DNA of 14,821 nt from a virus: UHGV virus genome UHGV-1732640. One strand, 5' to 3'. Of the stretch, positions 4,161 to 11,055 are shown in pieces. Each line of letters starts with the position of its first letter. Positions within the stretch are counted from its first letter, which is position 1. The notes beneath the pieces were generated by a model. The model did no database searches, had not been told where the DNA came from, and saw only the letters and a program-made list of their open reading frames with translations. The translations under genes and the position numbers were made by a program.

Positions 4161-4369
4161 ACGAGAATGATATCGAAGCCATGATTCAGCGTTATACGGA
4201 AGCTGAAATGGCGGTGCTGGACGGAAAATCCGTCACCTTTAATGGTCAGCAGATGACCATGGAAAACTTATCTGAGATCCGGCAGGGGCGGCAGGAGTGG
4301 GAGCGCCGCCTTGCGGCTCTGATTACACGACGACGGGGGCATCCCGGGTACCGGCTGGCGAGGTTCTGA
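4157..4369 (+). CDS. W: Head-tail connector / head-stabilising protein (gpW-like)
   Basis: 70 aa; C-terminal RRRGHPGY resembles lambda W C-terminus RRRGPAGFYV; position between large terminase and portal as in lambda; GGAGG 6 nt upstream; ATGA overlap with the terminase stop. The ATG at 4151 is too close to the RBS. Confidence 0.7.
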   Translation: MNENDIEAMIQRYTEAEMAVLDGKSVTFNGQQMTMENLSEIRQGRQEWERRLAALITRRRGHPGYRLARF

Positions 4370-5877
4370 TGGCAATTCTTGATGATGTGATTGGCGTTTT
4401 TTCACCAGGATGGAAAGCGGCAAGGCTGCGTTCCCGTGCGGTGATCCAGGCTTATGAGGCCGTAAAAACGACGCGGACACACAAAGCCCGGCGGGAAAAC
4501 CGAACTGCCGACCAGTTAAGCCAGTACGGGGCCGTGTCGTTACGTGAGCAGGCCCGTTACCTTGATAACAACCACGATCTGGTCATTGGTGTATTTGACA
4601 AGCTGGAAGAACGGGTGGTGGGGAAAAACGGGATTATTGTCGAGCCACATCCGGTATTACGCAATGGGGCCATTGCCCGTGACCTGGCTGCGGAGATTCG
4701 CACCCGATGGAGTGAATGGTCTGTCAGCCCGGAAGTCACCGGGCAGTTTACCCGTCCGATGCTGGAACGTCTGATGCTGCGTACCTGGCTGCGCGATGGT
4801 GAGGTGTTTGTCCAGATGGTTTCCGGGCGCATAAACAGCCTGACGCCTTCTGCCGGTGTTCATTTCTGGCTGGAGGCACTCGAGCCGGACTTTATTCCCA
4901 TGACCAGTGATGAGAGCAACAGGCTGAATCAGGGCGTGTTTGTTGATGACTGGGGGCGTCCCGAAAAATATCTGGTGTATAAAAGTCGTCCCGTATCCGG
5001 ACGGCAGATGGAAACCAAAGAAGTGGATGCAGAGCGAATGCTGCATCTTAAATTTGTTCGCCGTCTGCACCAGATGCGCGGGACGTCTTTGTTGTCCGGT
5101 GTGCTGATCCGCCTCAGTGCCCTGAAAGAGTATGAAGATTCTGAGCTGACTGCAGCAAGGATCGCCGCTGCTCTGGGGATGTACATCCGGAAAGGCGACG
5201 GGCAGAGCTATGAACCGGATGGTAATGGCAGCAAGGATAAGGAACGCGAGCTTACCATTCAGCCAGGCATTATTTACGACGATCTGAAACCCGGCGAAGA
5301 AATCGGAATGGTGAAGTCGGATCGTCCCAATCCTAACCTTGAAACTTTTCGTAATGGTCAGTTGCGTGCCGTGGCGGCGGGCAGTCGTCTGAGTTTTTCC
5401 AGTACGGCACGCAACTATAACGGCACTTACAGCGCCCAGCGTCAGGAGCTGGTTGAATCCACTGATGGCTACCTGATCCTGCAGGACTGGTTTATTGGTG
5501 CCGTCACCCGCCCGATGTATCGTGCCTGGCTGAAACAGGCTGTGGCATCCGGTGTTATCAGGCTACCCCGCGATCTTGACCGTTCTTCACTGTATACCGC
5601 GGTGTATTCCGGACCGGTGATGCCGTGGATTGACCCTGTTAAGGAGGCTGAGGCCTGGAAAATTCAGATTCGTGGTGGAGCAGCGACAGAATCAGACTGG
5701 GTACGTGCAGGTGGTCGTAATCCGAATGATGTCAAACGTCGGCGCAAGGCCGAAATTGATGAAAACCGCACGCTGGATCTGGTATTTGATACCGATCCGG
5801 CCAGTGATAAAGGAGGCAGCAGTGCCGCAACGAAACGACAAGAGCCGCAGCACACCGACGACCAGTCCGAAGAATAA
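4369..5877 (+). CDS. Portal protein (lambda gpB family)
   Basis: 502 aa from the ATG at 4369, which overlaps the W stop (TGATG) and has GAGG 5 nt upstream; the ORF extends upstream to 4297 but without a plausible start. Segment SRLSFSSTARNY resembles lambda B MSYSTARAS; position after W. Confidence 0.88.
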   Translation: MAILDDVIGVFSPGWKAARLRSRAVIQAYEAVKTTRTHKARRENRTADQLSQYGAVSLREQARYLDNNHDLVIGVFDKLEERVVGKNGIIVEPHPVLRNGAIARDLAAEIRTRWSEWSVSPEVTGQFTRPMLERLMLRTWLRDGEVFVQMVSGRINSLTPSAGVHFWLEALEPDFIPMTSDESNRLNQGVFVDDWGRPEKYLVYKSRPVSGRQMETKEVDAERMLHLKFVRRLHQMRGTSLLSGVLIRLSALKEYEDSELTAARIAAALGMYIRKGDGQSYEPDGNGSKDKERELTIQPGIIYDDLKPGEEIGMVKSDRPNPNLETFRNGQLRAVAAGSRLSFSSTARNYNGTYSAQRQELVESTDGYLILQDWFIGAVTRPMYRAWLKQAVASGVIRLPRDLDRSSLYTAVYSGPVMPWIDPVKEAEAWKIQIRGGAATESDWVRAGGRNPNDVKRRRKAEIDENRTLDLVFDTDPASDKGGSSAATKRQEPQHTDDQSEE

Positions 5878-5890
5878 TTCCTGGTTCAGG

Positions 5891-7849
5891 ATGCAGGCTG
5901 GTCACCAGAGTGACGCGGATATTTATATTTATGACGAGATTGGTTTCTGGGGTGTTACAGCGAAGCAGTTTATCAGTGATCTGAATGCACTGGGCGATAT
6001 CACCCACATTAATCTCCATATCAATTCACCGGGTGGCGATGTCTTTGAAGGCATCGCCATTTTTAATGCACTGAAAACACATGGTGCGTCCATTACCGTT
6101 TATGTCGACGGTGTGGCGGCGTCAATGGCGTCGGTCATTGCGATGGTGGGAAACCCGGTCATTATGCCGGAAAACACCTTCATGATGATTCATAAACCAT
6201 TTGGCTTTACGGGCGGTGATGCGGAGGACATGCGCACCTATGCCGACCTGCTCGATAAGGTTGAGGCGGTTCTGTTACCCGCTTATGCACAGAAAACCGG
6301 GAAAACCACCGATGAAATTGCTGCCATGCTGGCGGATGAGACCTGGATGTCCGGTGCCGAATGTCTGGCACATGGATTTGCTGATCAGGTGACGCCAGCC
6401 GTTAAGGCAATGGCATGTATTCAGTCAAAACGTACAGAGGAATTTAAAAAGATGCCGGAATCCATTCGAAACATGATTACTCCGCCACGCAACAGTGCTC
6501 CACGCGTACAGGATGATGAACCTGCAGCCTCCCGGACGCCAGTGCAGGCAGCAGCACCCGTGGTGGATGAAAACAGTATCCGTGCGCAGGTACTGGCAGA
6601 GCAAAAAGCGCGTGTAAACGGTATTAATGATCTGTTTGCCATGTTTGGCGGGCGTTATCAGACGCTGCAGGCTCAGTGTCTTGCCGATCCTGAATGTTCG
6701 CTGGAGCAGGCCCGCGAAAAGCTGTTGAACGAGATGGGGCGCGAGTCCACGCCATCCAATAAAAATACACCGGCTCATATTTATGCCGGTAACGGTAATT
6801 TTGTGGGGGACGGGATCCGCCAGGCGCTGATGGCGCGTGCCGGATTTGAAAAAACCGAACGTGATAATGTCTACAACGGGATGACCCTGCGTGAATATGC
6901 CCGTATGTCACTGACTGAACGGGGTATTGGGGTTTCCAGTTATAACCCGATGCAGATGGTCGGTGCGGCGTTCACACACAGTACGTCTGACTTCGGTAAT
7001 ATTCTGCTGGATGTTGCGAACAAAGCCATTCTGCAGGGCTGGGAAGATGCTCCTGAAACCTATGAACAGTGGACGCGGAAAGGTCAGTTGTCTGATTTTA
7101 AAATTGCCCATCGTGTGGGTATGGGGGGCTTCAGTGCTCTGCGTCAGGTGCGTGAAGGGGCGGAATATAAATACGTCACCACCGGAGATAAACAGGCCAC
7201 TATTGCACTGGCGACCTATGGCGAGCTGTTCAGTATCACCCGTCAGGCCATTATCAATGATGATCTGAATATGCTGACCGATGTCCCGATGAAACTGGGC
7301 CGTGCGGCGAAATCCACTATTGCCGATCTGGTTTATGCCATTCTGACGTCTAACCCGAAAATCTCCACAGATAATGTAAGTCTGTTCGATAAAGCGAAAC
7401 ATGCAAACGTACTGGAGAGCGCTGCAATGGACGTGGCATCGCTGGATAAAGCCCGCCAGTTGATGCGCGTTCAGAAAGAGGGGGAGCGTCATCTGAATAT
7501 TCGTCCTGCGTTCGTACTGGTACCGACGGCGATGGAGTCTGTTGCTAACCAGGTCATTCGCTCCTCAAGTGTCAAGGGGGCTGACATTAACGCCGGTATT
7601 ATTAACCCGGTGAAAGATTTTGCGACCGTTATTGCAGAGCCTCGTCTTGATGATAACAGCCAGACCACCTTCTACCTGGCTGCGTCAAAAGGCTCCGATA
7701 CGATTGAAGTGGCTTATCTCAACGGTGTGGATACGCCATATATTGATCAGATGGAGGGCTTCAGTGTGGATGGCGTGACAACGAAAGTGCGTATTGACGC
7801 CGGTGTCGCGCCAGTTGATCACCGCGGTCTGGTGAAATGTACGGTGTAA
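5891..7849 (+). CDS. Prohead protease (ClpP-like, S14-type) fused to linker/scaffold region and HK97-fold major capsid protein
   Basis: One uninterrupted frame. N-terminal about 200 aa has ClpP-like motifs (IYIYDEIG, NSPGGDVFEGIAIFNAL, AASMASVIAMVG, MMIHKP); the C-terminal about 330 aa resembles an HK97-type major capsid protein. Start uncertain: ATG 5891 has a weak RBS, while in-frame GTG 5822 follows AAGGAGG by 5 nt. Confidence 0.85.
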   Translation: MQAGHQSDADIYIYDEIGFWGVTAKQFISDLNALGDITHINLHINSPGGDVFEGIAIFNALKTHGASITVYVDGVAASMASVIAMVGNPVIMPENTFMMIHKPFGFTGGDAEDMRTYADLLDKVEAVLLPAYAQKTGKTTDEIAAMLADETWMSGAECLAHGFADQVTPAVKAMACIQSKRTEEFKKMPESIRNMITPPRNSAPRVQDDEPAASRTPVQAAAPVVDENSIRAQVLAEQKARVNGINDLFAMFGGRYQTLQAQCLADPECSLEQAREKLLNEMGRESTPSNKNTPAHIYAGNGNFVGDGIRQALMARAGFEKTERDNVYNGMTLREYARMSLTERGIGVSSYNPMQMVGAAFTHSTSDFGNILLDVANKAILQGWEDAPETYEQWTRKGQLSDFKIAHRVGMGGFSALRQVREGAEYKYVTTGDKQATIALATYGELFSITRQAIINDDLNMLTDVPMKLGRAAKSTIADLVYAILTSNPKISTDNVSLFDKAKHANVLESAAMDVASLDKARQLMRVQKEGERHLNIRPAFVLVPTAMESVANQVIRSSSVKGADINAGIINPVKDFATVIAEPRLDDNSQTTFYLAASKGSDTIEVAYLNGVDTPYIDQMEGFSVDGVTTKVRIDAGVAPVDHRGLVKCTV

Positions 7850-7871
7850 ACGTCGCAGACAACAACTCTGA

Positions 7872-7891
7872 TGGCCCGTAAGGGCTTTTTT
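7872..7891 (+). terminator. Rho-independent terminator-like hairpin after the capsid gene
   Basis: GGCCC-GTAA-GGGC stem-loop followed by a 7-T run, 22 nt after the capsid stop; a second GC hairpin (7904-7920) follows without a T-tract. Confidence 0.5.
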
Positions 7892-7935
7892 TGTACCTGA
7901 AATCAGCCCCTGAACGGGGCTGTGCGGAGACAGTT

Positions 7936-8259
7936 ATGGCAAAGAATTTTGTAGAAGAAGGAAAAACGGTGGCGATTGTTGCCAGTGCAGCCATCAGCAG
8001 CGGAGATCTGGTGCAGGTGGGTGATGTTTTTGCGGTGGCGCTGACCGATATTCCACAGGGTGAAACAGGCGACGGCATGACCGAAGGTGTGTTTATGCTG
8101 CCTAAGCTGAAAACGGATGACATGAAAACGGGTAAGAAGGTTTATCTGAAGTCCGGAAAAGTTCAGCTGACTAACAGCGGCTCTGATCCGCTGGTCGGGG
8201 TTGTCTGGGCAGATGCCGGAACCAGTGCAGAAGAAGTGCCGGTAAAACTCAATGTCTGA
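7936..8259 (+). CDS. Small head protein at the lambda FI/D position (107 aa); possible DUF2190-like decoration or head-completion protein
   Basis: ORF with GGAGA 5 nt before the ATG at 7936 (the ORF-track start at 7891 lies inside the terminator). Located between the capsid gene and the FII-like gene. Functional assignment is tentative. Confidence 0.6.
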   Translation: MAKNFVEEGKTVAIVASAAISSGDLVQVGDVFAVALTDIPQGETGDGMTEGVFMLPKLKTDDMKTGKKVYLKSGKVQLTNSGSDPLVGVVWADAGTSAEEVPVKLNV

Positions 8260-8527
8260 TCCCTTTTCCCGGCTGGCAGCGCATATGGATGCGATCACGG
8301 TCAGAAAGATGGGAAAGACAGCCTCGATTAATGATGCCGATATGACTGTGATCCCGGGAGAAACACTGGCAGAGCTGAATGCTCTGTCCGGACCTGCGGT
8401 CTCTCTGGTGGTGTTTTCTTCGGGATACCGCCCACGGCGCGGGGATCGCGTTGTTTATGACGGACAACAATGGACGGTCACACGGCATGAACGTTTTAAC
8501 GGTAAGCCAATGATCTTTATTGAGTAA
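8252..8527 (+). CDS. Head-tail joining protein (gpFII-like)
   Basis: 91 aa; N-terminus MSDPFSRLAAHMDAITVRKMGKTAS aligns with lambda FII MADFDNLFDAAIARADETIRGYMGTSA; shared RRGD...W.V.R pattern; lies immediately before Z; 8-nt overlap with the preceding gene. Confidence 0.7.
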   Translation: MSDPFSRLAAHMDAITVRKMGKTASINDADMTVIPGETLAELNALSGPAVSLVVFSSGYRPRRGDRVVYDGQQWTVTRHERFNGKPMIFIE

Positions 8528-10270: not shown

Positions 10271-10290
10271 CAGGACGATACTCATCATTT

Positions 10291-10314
10291 GCCCCGGTTA
10301 TCCGGGGCTTTTTT
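10291..10314 (+). terminator. Rho-independent terminator-like hairpin after V
   Basis: GCCCCGG-TTAT-CCGGGGC stem-loop followed by TTTTTT, 21 nt after the V stop and just upstream of the G RBS. Confidence 0.55.
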
Positions 10315-10330
10315 GCAGGTGGAGAACATG

Positions 10331-10717
10331 ATGTTTCTGAAACAGGGCTCGTTTAATTATGAAAAGCAGTCCGTGGTGCTCAGTGAGCTGTCCGGGCTGC
10401 AGAGAATTGAATATCTGGCGTTTGTTCAGCAGCGAACGGCAAAGTTTGATGCCGAAGAGGGAGAACTGCCGGAGGCTGAACGACAGATTGCTTTTCTGCG
10501 GATGGGGATGGATATCAATGCCTGGCTGGTTTCCCGCTCACTGTGGAATGCGGAACAGTCTCAGGATGTTGAGACGCTTTGCGCATCCGTTATTACAACA
10601 TGGTCGTATGATGCCCTGGGAGCGGGGGCGGAGATGGTTCTGTCGCTGAGCGGTATGGGAGCCATTGAGAATGCCGGGGATTTGGAGCATGAGGTGCTGA
10701 CGCCGGAAAAGTCCTGA
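10331..10717 (+). CDS. G: Tail assembly chaperone G
   Basis: N-terminus MFLKQGSFNYEKQSVVLSELSGLQRIEYLAF parallels lambda G MFLKTESFEHNGVTVTLSELSALQRIEHLAL; GGAGA 5 nt before ATG 10331. Confidence 0.88.
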   Translation: MFLKQGSFNYEKQSVVLSELSGLQRIEYLAFVQQRTAKFDAEEGELPEAERQIAFLRMGMDINAWLVSRSLWNAEQSQDVETLCASVITTWSYDALGAGAEMVLSLSGMGAIENAGDLEHEVLTPEKS

Positions 10718-11055
10718 CGCGGGAAATGCAGTTTGTCATGCGGCTTGCCCGGGAGTTCCGGCGGGCAGACTGGCGGCGGATGCTGTCGGAAATGTCGGCC
10801 ACTGAGCTTGGTGAATGGGGCGATTATTTCCAGATGCAGAGCTTCAGTGATGTGTGGATGGATGCGCAGTTTGCCTCGCTGAAGGCATTGATCGTGAGAA
10901 TGGTGTCCGGTAGCAGTGATGCTGCGGTGGCTGATTTCAGCCTTTTACCGGAAGAGAACGGGATACCGGAGCGAACGGACGAAGAACTGATGCATCTTGG
11001 GGAAGGTATTTCCGGAGGTGTGCGTTATGGACCAGATAGCCAACCTGGTCATTGA
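10331..11055 (+). CDS. T: Tail assembly chaperone G-T fusion, predicted to arise by a programmed -1 ribosomal frameshift near 10705-10711
   Basis: The T frame is -1 relative to G and is open from 10693, overlapping the last 7 G codons. The only A-rich candidate slip site is G GAA AAG (10705-10711), against lambda G GGA AAG. The ATG at 10726 has no RBS, consistent with T being made only as a fusion. The arrangement is conserved in lambda-like tail modules. Confidence 0.6.

Follow-up and report, generated by a model that had tools for sequence, protein, structure and literature searches.

A fused protease-scaffold-capsid head gene of Gifsy-2 type in a lambdoid phage, with a predicted nested start for a protease-less product

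Here we describe a gene for head assembly from a lambdoid phage or prophage of the Gifsy-2 type, located at positions 5822-7849 of a 14,821-nucleotide stretch of viral DNA (UHGV virus genome UHGV-1732640, referred to below as the window). Its single uninterrupted frame runs from a ClpP-like protease domain through a linker that contains a small helical domain to an HK97-fold capsid domain. Taken as a whole, we regard it as likely that this gene works through procapsid processing and through two nested products. The fused gene is the already described Gifsy-2-type "three-in-one" head gene, ordinary, known, and very common in E. coli prophages; the fusion carries a name in RefSeq and has been followed by cryo-EM in Gifsy-2, and what could be added here is mechanistic. 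The conservation of an internal start region inclines us toward a nested two-product gene in which the scaffold-capsid form is probably the bulk subunit, and in which an equivalent start within the linker would be present family-wide and absent from the public annotations examined.

Reading frame, neighbours and relatives of the fused gene

The gene and its surroundings comprise the following features:

4369..5877, + strand: portal gene of the lambda family (Pfam Phage_portal_2, E 4e-82; the cdtI annotation maps here)
5809..5816, + strand: Shine-Dalgarno (SD) sequence AAAGGAGG of the full-length product, with a duplex energy of -11.6 kcal/mol, the best of the region
5822..7849, + strand: full-length ORF, protease-scaffold-capsid, with a GTG start and a TAA stop (675 aa, 73.5 kDa)
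7873..7893, + strand: terminator-like GC hairpin followed by T7, just past the stop codon, read from the sequence
7936..8259, + strand: head decoration (cement) protein gene, 107 aa (Pfam Phage_cement_2, E 9e-21)

The preliminary description had read protease, linker and capsid protein from one frame and had proposed HMM domain assignment as a check. A Pfam search bears this reading out, since both the ClpP-like protease and the HK97-fold capsid domains are found in a common frame with no stop between them. Upstream, that frame stays free of stops as far back as 5630, and the start originally placed at ATG 5891 should probably be moved 69 nt upstream. We dropped ATG 5891 in favour of GTG 5822, the most likely start of the full-length product, because a conserved 'SW(F/Y)x(M/I)' motif is found 5' of ATG 5891, because Gifsy-2, Fels-1, and F10 have Ile instead of Met where this ATG aligns, and because a GTG with a strong SD, 22-24 codons 5' of ATG 5891, is kept in about 30 enterobacterial relatives. 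The GTG start also agrees with the 675-aa length of an identical NCBI-sourced protein. With this start, the fused gene overlaps the final 56 nt of the portal gene that lies directly 5' of it. Elsewhere, rare frameshifted alleles occur, for example as 1159-aa portal-protease-capsid calls. On the 3' side, a second hairpin lies at 7905-7923, and in mEp213 a rho-independent terminator is annotated at the equivalent position. The cement protein gene is the conserved 3' partner of the fused gene, a position that it also takes in Gifsy-2, cdtI, F10, and 9 distant fused genes.

The protein scores 985.2 bits against the NCBIfam model NF045540 (cut-off 475), its residues 31-673 matching profile positions 2-651 of 652. 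This family (scaf_prot_MCP1) is named 'ClpP-like prohead protease/major capsid protein fusion protein', which is the name that RefSeq uses for identical E. coli genes, and PHROG 133 likewise matches the fused protein over its full length. By tblastn, the gene matches the capsid gene of phage Tritos at 100% identity and those of mEp460, cdtI, and Ayreon at 99% or more, while the Gifsy-2 gene is matched in one piece over 100% of the query at 69.8% identity. The order terminase, portal, fusion gene, cement protein is also that of Gifsy-2, and the fused arrangement recurs in Fels-1, mEp213, cdtI, mEp460, Stx phages, and Pseudomonas F10/MD8. Effantin et al. are said to have described a 'tripartite capsid gene' of Gifsy-2, together with cryo-EM, in 2010 (Virology 402:355). 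It had been suspected, with no specific phage named, that such fusions occur in some lambdoid prophages, and Gifsy-2, 70% identical, supplies the precedent: its protease and coat genes are reported to be fused (PMC12315714). Two further sources give the Gifsy-2 capsid as T=7, with trimers at the 3-fold axes (PMC8814770; PMC8538268).

Could the fusion be an artefact of sequencing or assembly, or a decayed prophage pseudogene, in which two genes, one for the protease and one for the capsid protein, have been joined? Nothing was found in favour of this. At least 80% of the gene is present in 2017 of 5426 complete E. coli genomes, which is over a third. The intact 675-codon frame is found in 71 of 80 independent IMG/VR contigs, and an identical or near-identical intact frame in 16 INPHARED phage records, including Tritos, mEp460, cdtI, and Ayreon. 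Representatives of more than 100 clusters at 50% identity share the full-length fused architecture. An intact frame in so many records, among them some 2000 complete E. coli genomes, and the same architecture across these clusters leave the artefact account with practically no credence, and a false fusion by sequencing error, which had been named as one finding that would overturn the polyprotein reading, is excluded.

Domains of the fused protein

Along the full-length product we distinguish the following parts, with residues in the 675-aa numbering:

5885..6394, + strand: ClpP-fold serine protease domain
6122-6124, + strand: catalytic Ser101
6191-6193, + strand: catalytic His124
6338-6340, + strand: Glu173, aligned with the ClpP catalytic Asp
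6485..6562, + strand: disordered Pro/Ala/Gln-rich linker (pLDDT <50 at residues 221-246 of the model)
6569..6742, + strand: compact three-helix domain (AlphaFold2 helices 249-272, 279-287, and 293-306, pLDDT 86-94)
6944..7837, + strand: HK97-fold major capsid domain, Mu gpT-like

The ClpP fold was confirmed for the protease domain. Ser101 and His124 align with the catalytic residues of ClpP and are invariant among relatives, and the position of the ClpP Asp is held here by Glu173, with Glu at least 80% conserved. The protein passes the cut-off of NF045542, 'head maturation protease, ClpP-related' (215.7 bits vs 120), and stays below that of TIGR00493, the cellular ClpP equivalog model (59.6 bits vs 308.6). 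Judged by these profile scores, the protease domain is ClpP-related and is not a cellular ClpP.

The part between protease and capsid had been called coiled-coil-like. In the model this part has no long coiled coil; it consists of a Pro/Ala-rich stretch that is disordered and of three helices packed into a compact domain. The length and sequence of the Pro/Ala/Gln-rich linker vary among relatives, where they appear as gaps in the alignments. The protease and the Nu3 scaffold part of lambda gpC are collinear with the present protein in hhalign (89% probability, E 2.4e-6), columns 45-341 of our A2 alignment profile matching gpC residues 122-433 and the catalytic Ser being in register, and BLASTP, which was also run against lambda gpC, supports the assignment of the three-helix domain. 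The suggestion that the middle part stands in for a scaffold is plausible in the light of this collinearity. Residues 211-374, which hold the linker and the helical domains, precede the HK97-fold domain as a scaffold-like N-terminal segment, as in delta-domain capsid proteins; the helices at residues 327-374, just 5' of the capsid domain, may be part of the removed segment or of the N-arm. A maturation cleavage site was sought from sequence and model, and what resulted is a bracket, from about residue 308 to residue 385, with no site pinned within it; a cut in this range would leave a mature capsid protein of 31-40 kDa.

A candidate start within the linker and a model of head assembly

Within the linker region, two further features bear on how many products the gene makes:

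6437..6441, + strand: internal SD-like GAGGA, within Glu-Glu codons, conserved in 70 non-redundant relatives
6452..7849, + strand: predicted nested ORF, scaffold and capsid without protease, from the ATG of Met211-Pro212 (465 aa, 50.7 kDa)

In all 70 non-redundant relatives the site at 6452 reads ATG CCN. Upstream of it, the first SD codon is always NAG, with GAG in 56 of 56 Glu codons, and the codon that follows is always GAN; by way of control, GAG has a share of 0.40 among Glu codons gene-wide and of 0.26 among Glu codons before GAN. An internal SD duplex of -5 kcal/mol or stronger is present in all 70 relatives, as against 12% of background codons. Nowhere in the gene is synonymous conservation higher than at this site (z 4.1-4.3), the mRNA window around the ATG is unstructured (-1.4 vs -10.7±3.8 kcal/mol), and when some 40 candidate starts are ranked, this one comes first in 55 of the 70 genes. 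Of 14 distant fused genes, 11 have their best-scoring in-frame start within the same linker (binomial P 3e-9), and these linker starts carry an AAGGAGG-type SD 5-6 nt before the ATG. Nested in-frame scaffold starts of this kind are established in lambda C/Nu3 and in Mu I/Z (PMC4378225).

The same site can be read without any internal initiation, as belonging to the pure polyprotein gene of the preliminary description, which yields the full-length 675-aa chain only, with one protease per capsid subunit and with GAGGA-N10-ATG reflecting protein-level or other constraints. The ORF is indeed continuous, and the public records examined annotate a single product and no second one for it. Part of the conservation does lie at the protein level, as distant relatives without the Met retain an [FY]xxxP motif, and with it the Phe and Pro near the site. 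The internal SD is only moderately strong, its core in the subfamily being only GAGG/AGGA at about -6 kcal/mol with a rather long spacer, and in control genes of the window single internal sites attain similar raw scores. By a rough estimate, 415 copies of the 41-kDa internal moiety (residues 1-374; 73.5 minus 32.7 kDa) would still find room in a T=7 procapsid. However, protein-level constraint leaves the use of GAG in 56 of 56 Glu codons unexplained, and where E, Q, and K replace one another at the SD codon the substitutions all retain xAG. Nor does a single-product gene account for the invariant Met within the linker, for the unstructured mRNA window, or for a strong SD and ATG arising independently in the linkers of distant fused genes, and we consider it unlikely.

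Another alternative grants that the nucleotide-level conservation is real and takes the SD-like element not as a start, but as a translational pause or other RNA-level signal, for instance one that lets the protease fold before the linker emerges. Internal SD-like sequences have been proposed to slow ribosomes, and a pause here would be consistent with those proposals, although the slowing effect is itself disputed. Against a pause stand the invariant in-frame ATG at canonical distance and the AT-rich unstructured spacer, which with the SD make up the full signature of an initiation region, as well as the canonical AAGGAGG placed 5-6 nt before the ATG in distant relatives. This makes a pause signal very improbable.

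Other candidate sites in the gene were rejected. Met211 cannot be the family-wide start in the sense of one alignment column, as Met is found there in just 10 of 133 representatives at 35-48% identity; the idea of a family-wide internal start survived because distant genes carry their own SD and ATG further along the linker. Met114 (652-aa numbering) was tried as a second internal start, with an SD-like upstream sequence in 89% of relatives. It was ruled against, as that sequence comes from conserved Gly-Gly-Asp codons, there is no peak of synonymous conservation, and Gifsy-2 and Fels-1 have Ile. A dnaX-like slippery site, AAAAAG (6446-6451), has no proper zero-frame heptamer and is not conserved. 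A literature search on STM1033 and an internal start, with the original Gifsy-2 description outside its coverage, returned nothing relevant.

Dual initiation is the reading that we hold to be probable from the conserved sequence signals: GTG 5822 would give the 73.5-kDa protease-scaffold-capsid protein, the SD and ATG at 6437-6454 would give the 50.7-kDa scaffold-capsid protein, and the ratio of the two would be set by the two sites. Protease and capsid had been expected to be made in a fixed 1:1 ratio; as the conserved internal SD and ATG predict a protease-less product, this expectation is probably wrong.

The ORF encodes first a ClpP-fold serine protease, then a flexible linker that carries a small, Nu3-like helical scaffold domain, and last a Mu-gpT-like HK97-fold capsid protein. 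In the model that we propose by the precedents of Gifsy-2, HK97, and lambda, the precursor would build a T=7 procapsid that encloses the protease and scaffold parts; all that is N-terminal to the capsid domain would next be cut away by the protease, and the shell would then expand and be cemented by the downstream decoration protein. Autoproteolytic release is suggested by the Gifsy-2 precedent and by the invariant Ser and His of the protease domain. The 50.7-kDa scaffold-capsid product would resemble HK97 gp5, delta domain included, and the full-length form would act as carrier of the protease, taking the place of a capsid subunit in the shell through its own capsid domain, much as lambda gpC co-assembles with the nested Nu3. 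Maturation to a capsid protein of about 30-40 kDa, a T=7 shell, and a trimeric decoration protein are described for Gifsy-2 only, in citing papers (PMC12315714, PMC8538268, PMC8814770).

If the internal start is used, dual initiation would set the protease:capsid ratio throughout this large gene family, and the protease would enter the procapsid fused to a capsid subunit. Such a gene would combine the strategy of lambda, the nesting of C and Nu3, with that of HK97, a delta domain on the capsid protein. A nested coding sequence would then be missing from thousands of database entries, and the 465-aa form would be the one to express for assembly work or for the engineering of virus-like particles.

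Comparison with known systems

Among the closest known systems is the Gifsy-2 gene (STM1034.3n.Gifsy2, NC_010393), which is collinear throughout and shares the order of ClpP-like protease, central domain, and capsid protein, the lambda-type terminase and portal upstream, the cement protein downstream, and the internal motif GAGGAG-N9-ATG-CCA. It differs in host, and in the sequence and length of the Pro/Ala-rich linker and of the N-terminal extension. The experimental findings (cryo-EM, T=7 capsid, trimeric decoration protein), as reported in citing papers, were all obtained with Gifsy-2 and not with the present phage. The present protein is a member of NF045540 and PHROG 133, whose family name and annotations imply one product and no internal start. 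Pseudomonas MD8 gp5 and F10 gp5 are 57% identical over the full length and also have an internal motif, CAGGAG-N9-ATG-CCC. They come from high-GC Pseudomonas hosts, and for MD8 the evidence is bioinformatic only: that protease, scaffold, and capsid protein lie in one gene was argued there from modelling (PMC8508860).

In Mu the capsid gene is separate, and no similarity was detected between gpI and the present protease-scaffold part, so homology to Mu gpI was rejected. With lambda, the gene shares a lambda-family portal and terminase, a decoration protein, and the collinearity of gpC with the protease and scaffold part, and the in-frame internal start in C that yields the scaffold Nu3 is the model for the proposed nested start. 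Yet Nu3 is initiated from within the protease fold, while the start proposed here comes after it, and the annotation places gpC among S49 (SppA-type) peptidases, while the present protein best matches ClpP families. Lambda makes its capsid protein E from a separate gene, whereas here the capsid domain continues in frame with no stop, and the decoration gene comes before the capsid gene in lambda but after it here. Pairwise comparison detected no similarity between gpE and the present capsid domain, nor did BLAST between gpD and the present decoration protein.

HK97 has a separate gene for its protease, gp4, which belongs to another protease family, covalent chainmail cross-links, and no decoration protein. 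Here, in contrast, the protease lies in the same ORF as the capsid protein, and a cement-protein gene follows. Common to both is a scaffold-like segment that is covalently continuous with an HK97-fold capsid protein, at its N-terminal side, and that the prohead protease presumably cuts off; in this respect the predicted nested 465-aa product would be the direct analogue of HK97 gp5.

The fused gene and its start codon

On the forward strand, 5891-7849 reads through 652 codons without interruption before a TAA stop, and this one frame carries Pfam matches to CLP_protease (residues 23-168, E 4e-36) and Phage_capsid_4 (residues 352-649, E 7e-55) and a weaker one to Mu-like_gpT; PHROG 133 matches the fused protein end to end. 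These results confirm the preliminary description, which had placed a prohead protease and a major capsid protein in one uninterrupted frame and proposed a check by domain models. Its start codon, ATG 5891, is probably wrong, and sequence comparison points instead to GTG 5822. The frame is already open at 5630, the motif (N/K/E)SW(F/Y)x(M/I) upstream of ATG 5891 is kept in every relative, and Gifsy-2, Fels-1 and F10 have Ile, not Met, at the position of that ATG. In about 30 enterobacterial relatives a strong Shine-Dalgarno (SD) sequence accompanies a GTG located 22-24 codons upstream of that position, and an NCBI-sourced identical protein has 675 aa, the length expected from GTG 5822. With this start, the fused gene overlaps the final 56 nt of the portal gene.

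Features of the fused gene
5809-5816, + strand: SD sequence AAAGGAGG, upstream of GTG 5822
5822-7849, + strand: fused gene, GTG start, TAA stop
6452-6454, + strand: internal ATG, Met211 of the 675-aa protein

The two genes use different frames in the overlap (5822-5877), and AAAGGAGG also encodes Asp-Lys-Gly-Gly of the portal protein. Start choice varies among public records: cdtI has the downstream ATG, mEp213 and the Stx2d phage have the GTG, and some entries start further upstream still (707 aa).

That the fusion occurs in lambdoid phages, as had been believed, is borne out by full-length, one-piece matches in Gifsy-2, Fels-1, mEp460 and cdtI. The Tritos capsid gene product is 100% identical to the fused protein; mEp460, cdtI, Ayreon, phi458 and others share at least 99% identity with it, VT1-Sakai and several Stx2 phages 77-78%, mEp213, mEp043 and LLS 74%, Fels-1 72%, Gifsy-2 69.8%, a Providencia phage 64%, and Pseudomonas F10 and MD8 57%, all of these matches being full length and in a single piece. 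The 675-codon frame is intact in 71 of 80 IMG/VR contigs, and at least 80% of the gene is present in 2017 of 5426 complete E. coli genomes. An artefact or a pseudogene is refuted by the intact frame in sequenced phages, IMG/VR contigs and E. coli genomes, and with it the concern that a sequencing error had created a false fusion. A search of 1.84 billion cluster representatives gave over 100 proteins, 640-740 aa long, that cover the whole query at 35-48% identity. RefSeq labels the hits listed 'ClpP-like prohead protease/major capsid protein fusion protein', and with the NCBIfam model of that name, NF045540, the protein reaches 985 bits, the cut-off being 475; the cut-offs of cellular ClpP models are not reached. 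The protein is ClpP-related and lies outside the cellular ClpP models, the fused arrangement is already known, and the gene is an ordinary member.

A sister curated family, NF045541 ('prohead protease/major capsid protein fusion protein'), has another protease: its N-terminal 175 residues differ and it shares only the scaffold-capsid part (residues 219-671), so this module has been joined to more than one protease; the junction falls directly after the predicted internal start. In VT1-Sakai (AP000400.1, 23245-26507) the orthologous gene, 78% identical, is interrupted by IS629, which fits a prophage unable to build its own heads. More than 12 database proteins of 1135-1159 aa (NCBI, ENA, Logan assemblies) join portal, protease and capsid in one chain. 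Their junction, ...DKGGSSA|QRNDRS... (window about 5824-5827), fits a 1-nt deletion directly after the GTG start and is absent from all 80 IMG/VR loci; these chains probably stem from a sequencing error that recurs or from an uncommon allele of defective prophages.

Protein anatomy and a predicted internal start

An AlphaFold2 model (675-aa numbering) was built from a 61-sequence alignment, with a mean pLDDT of 86.

Segments around and between the protease and capsid domains
Residues about 1-17: disordered N-terminus (model)
Residues 203-219: two short helices (model)
Residues 222-247: disordered Pro/Ala/Gln-rich stretch that differs among relatives (model and alignment)
Residues 250-307: three-helix domain, confident (model)
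Residues 308-326: loop, low confidence (model)
Residues 327-385: three additional helices (model)

Ser101 and His124 are unchanged in 61 diverse relatives, and Glu173 aligns with the catalytic Asp of ClpP. Judging from the model, the maturation cleavage site is predicted to fall somewhere from about residue 308 to residue 385, and the mature protein would then have a mass of 31-40 kDa.

The whole interest of the fused gene lies in a testable prediction, that of a nested start at ATG 6452. In a first 8-sequence alignment, Met211-Pro212 (Met188-Pro189 when counted from ATG 5891) was invariant, with GAGGA upstream. Filtering 79 loci of different bacterial species to pairwise nucleotide identities below 95% left 70 genes, which form 30 clusters below 75% identity and come from Enterobacterales, Pasteurellaceae, Pseudomonas and Shewanella. 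ATG-CCN is present in all 70. The fifth codon upstream of the ATG is NAG throughout: where it encodes Glu it is GAG in 56 of 56 genes, and where Gln or Lys replaces Glu it is CAG or AAG. Gene-wide, GAG makes up only 0.40 of Glu codons, and 0.12-0.60 in 22 other conserved Glu columns. Since the next codon is GAN in all 70 genes, AGGA results in 69 and GGAG in the other, ending 10 nt before the ATG. As a control, just 26% of the Glu codons that precede GAN elsewhere in these genes are GAG, and AGGA occurs there less often than expected.

Synonymous conservation reaches its gene-wide peak at windows ending in this ATG (z 4.3 for 6 codons, 4.1 for 12). All 70 genes have an SD duplex at least as strong as -5 kcal/mol, a level reached by 12% of background codons, and the spacer between SD and ATG is 72% A+T against 49% gene-wide. 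Folding of the mRNA from -30 to +20 yields -1.4 kcal/mol, compared with -10.7±3.8 elsewhere in the gene, and the region is less structured than average in every one of the 70. When about 40 in-frame start codons per gene were ranked by a score combining SD energy with unfolding, the equivalent of ATG 6452 topped the list in 55 genes; in the rest it was second (13 genes) or third (2 genes).

Met is scarce at this column in the representatives at 35-48% identity (10 of 133), and their linkers nearly always contain '...(E/K/G-rich)xxM(P)...'. Among 14 distant genes with DNA, the top in-frame start lies in the protease/scaffold linker in 11 (binomial probability about 3e-9) and the second-best does so in 2 more, with SDs of AAGGAGG, AAGGAG, AGGAGG or GAGGA 5-9 nt upstream. 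The predicted internal product of distant relatives very often opens with Met-Pro, as in the window, which suggests a conserved N-terminal requirement, such as Met removal exposing Pro.

Together these signals make it fairly probable that the gene yields two nested products: GTG 5822 would start the full-length protein of 73.5 kDa, and ATG 6452 a scaffold-capsid protein of 50.7 kDa. A pure polyprotein with protease and capsid at 1:1 seems unlikely, as it does not account for the constrained synonymous codon choice, the Met that never varies, the unstructured mRNA or the independent SD and ATG signals in distant relatives. The conserved SD-like element might alternatively be a pause signal, but with the ATG present a start site is the more parsimonious reading. 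Two nested products would remove the fixed 1:1 synthesis claimed in the preliminary description, whose interpretation as a whole is partly supported. The 50.7-kDa form would be the counterpart of HK97 gp5 with its delta domain, and the 73.5-kDa form a protease carrier joining the shell as a subunit. By precedent, a T=7 procapsid would be built from the precursors on the portal, with their N-terminal parts within; the ClpP-like domain would then cut off all that precedes the capsid domain, the fragments would exit, the shell would expand and the 107-aa cement protein (7936-8259) would bind. The internal start is unannotated in the public records examined (cdtI, Gifsy-2 and other phage records, RefSeq E. 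coli hits), and it is possibly the sole new element.

Another in-frame ATG, at 6230-6232 (Met137; Met114 in the 652-aa numbering) inside the protease fold, has an SD-like upstream sequence in 89% of relatives and lies near the aligned lambda Nu3 start. It was judged coincidental because the upstream signal consists of Gly-Gly-Asp codons, there is no synonymous peak, and Gifsy-2 and Fels-1 have Ile there.

Neighbouring genes

Gene order is that of Gifsy-2 and cdtI: a DUF1441 small terminase, a gpA-type large terminase, a small ORF at the lambda gpW position (for which a family match was sought and none found), a lambda-family portal, the fused gene, a Phage_cement_2 decoration protein, and Z-, U- and V-like tail genes. 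Distant relatives (35-45% identity, GC 44-66%) keep the block of portal, fused gene and Phage_cement_2.

Features downstream of the fused gene
7850-7935: spacer from capsid stop to decoration gene, 86 nt, two perfect GC hairpins
7936-8259: decoration (cement) protein gene, 107 aa, Phage_cement_2

The first hairpin (7873-7886), followed by T7, resembles an intrinsic terminator, and in mEp213 a terminator is annotated at the matching place after the capsid gene; the second (7905-7923) lies directly upstream of the decoration-gene SD. Placed within the late operon, such a terminator may adjust the amount of capsid relative to decoration protein or need Q-type antitermination. Beyond the decoration gene, a 91-aa ORF (8252-8527) matches Pfam PF13856, named 'Gifsy-2', whose description, 'ATP-binding sugar transporter from pro-phage', seems not to suit a small head-tail joining gene located here. 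The adjoining ORFs 10289-10717 and 10726-11055, upstream of the tape-measure gene, occupy the position of the lambda G/T tail-assembly chaperones, where by analogy a programmed -1 frameshift would be expected.

Comparison with lambda, Mu, HK97 and Gifsy-2

The protease and middle part are collinear with lambda gpC, including its Nu3 scaffold region (BLASTP E 0.007; hhalign probability 89%, E 2.4e-6), in line with the earlier suggestion that the linker may stand in for a scaffold. The gene therefore looks, evolutionarily, as if a lambda-C-type protease/scaffold gene had fused with a capsid gene of the Mu T type; the start of T and the stop of I overlap in the Mu annotation, so that a small change could yield such a fusion. 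In-frame scaffold starts within protease genes are established in lambda (C/Nu3) and in Mu and Mu-like phages (I/Z; PMC4378225).

The protease and coat genes of Gifsy-2 are described as fused (PMC12315714), and its capsid as T=7 with a trimeric decoration protein on the 3-fold axes (PMC8814770; PMC8538268); by sequence comparison, the fused gene is shown to be orthologous to that studied gene. For Pseudomonas phage MD8, modelling has led to the proposal that a single gene, gp5, supplies protease, scaffold and capsid protein (PMC8508860). In its behaviour the gene resembles lambda C/Nu3 with a capsid protein of the HK97 delta-domain kind attached. It belongs to neither type, each differing in a defining feature: lambda has a separate capsid gene whereas here the capsid domain lies within the fused gene, and the protease gene is separate in HK97 and part of the fused gene here.
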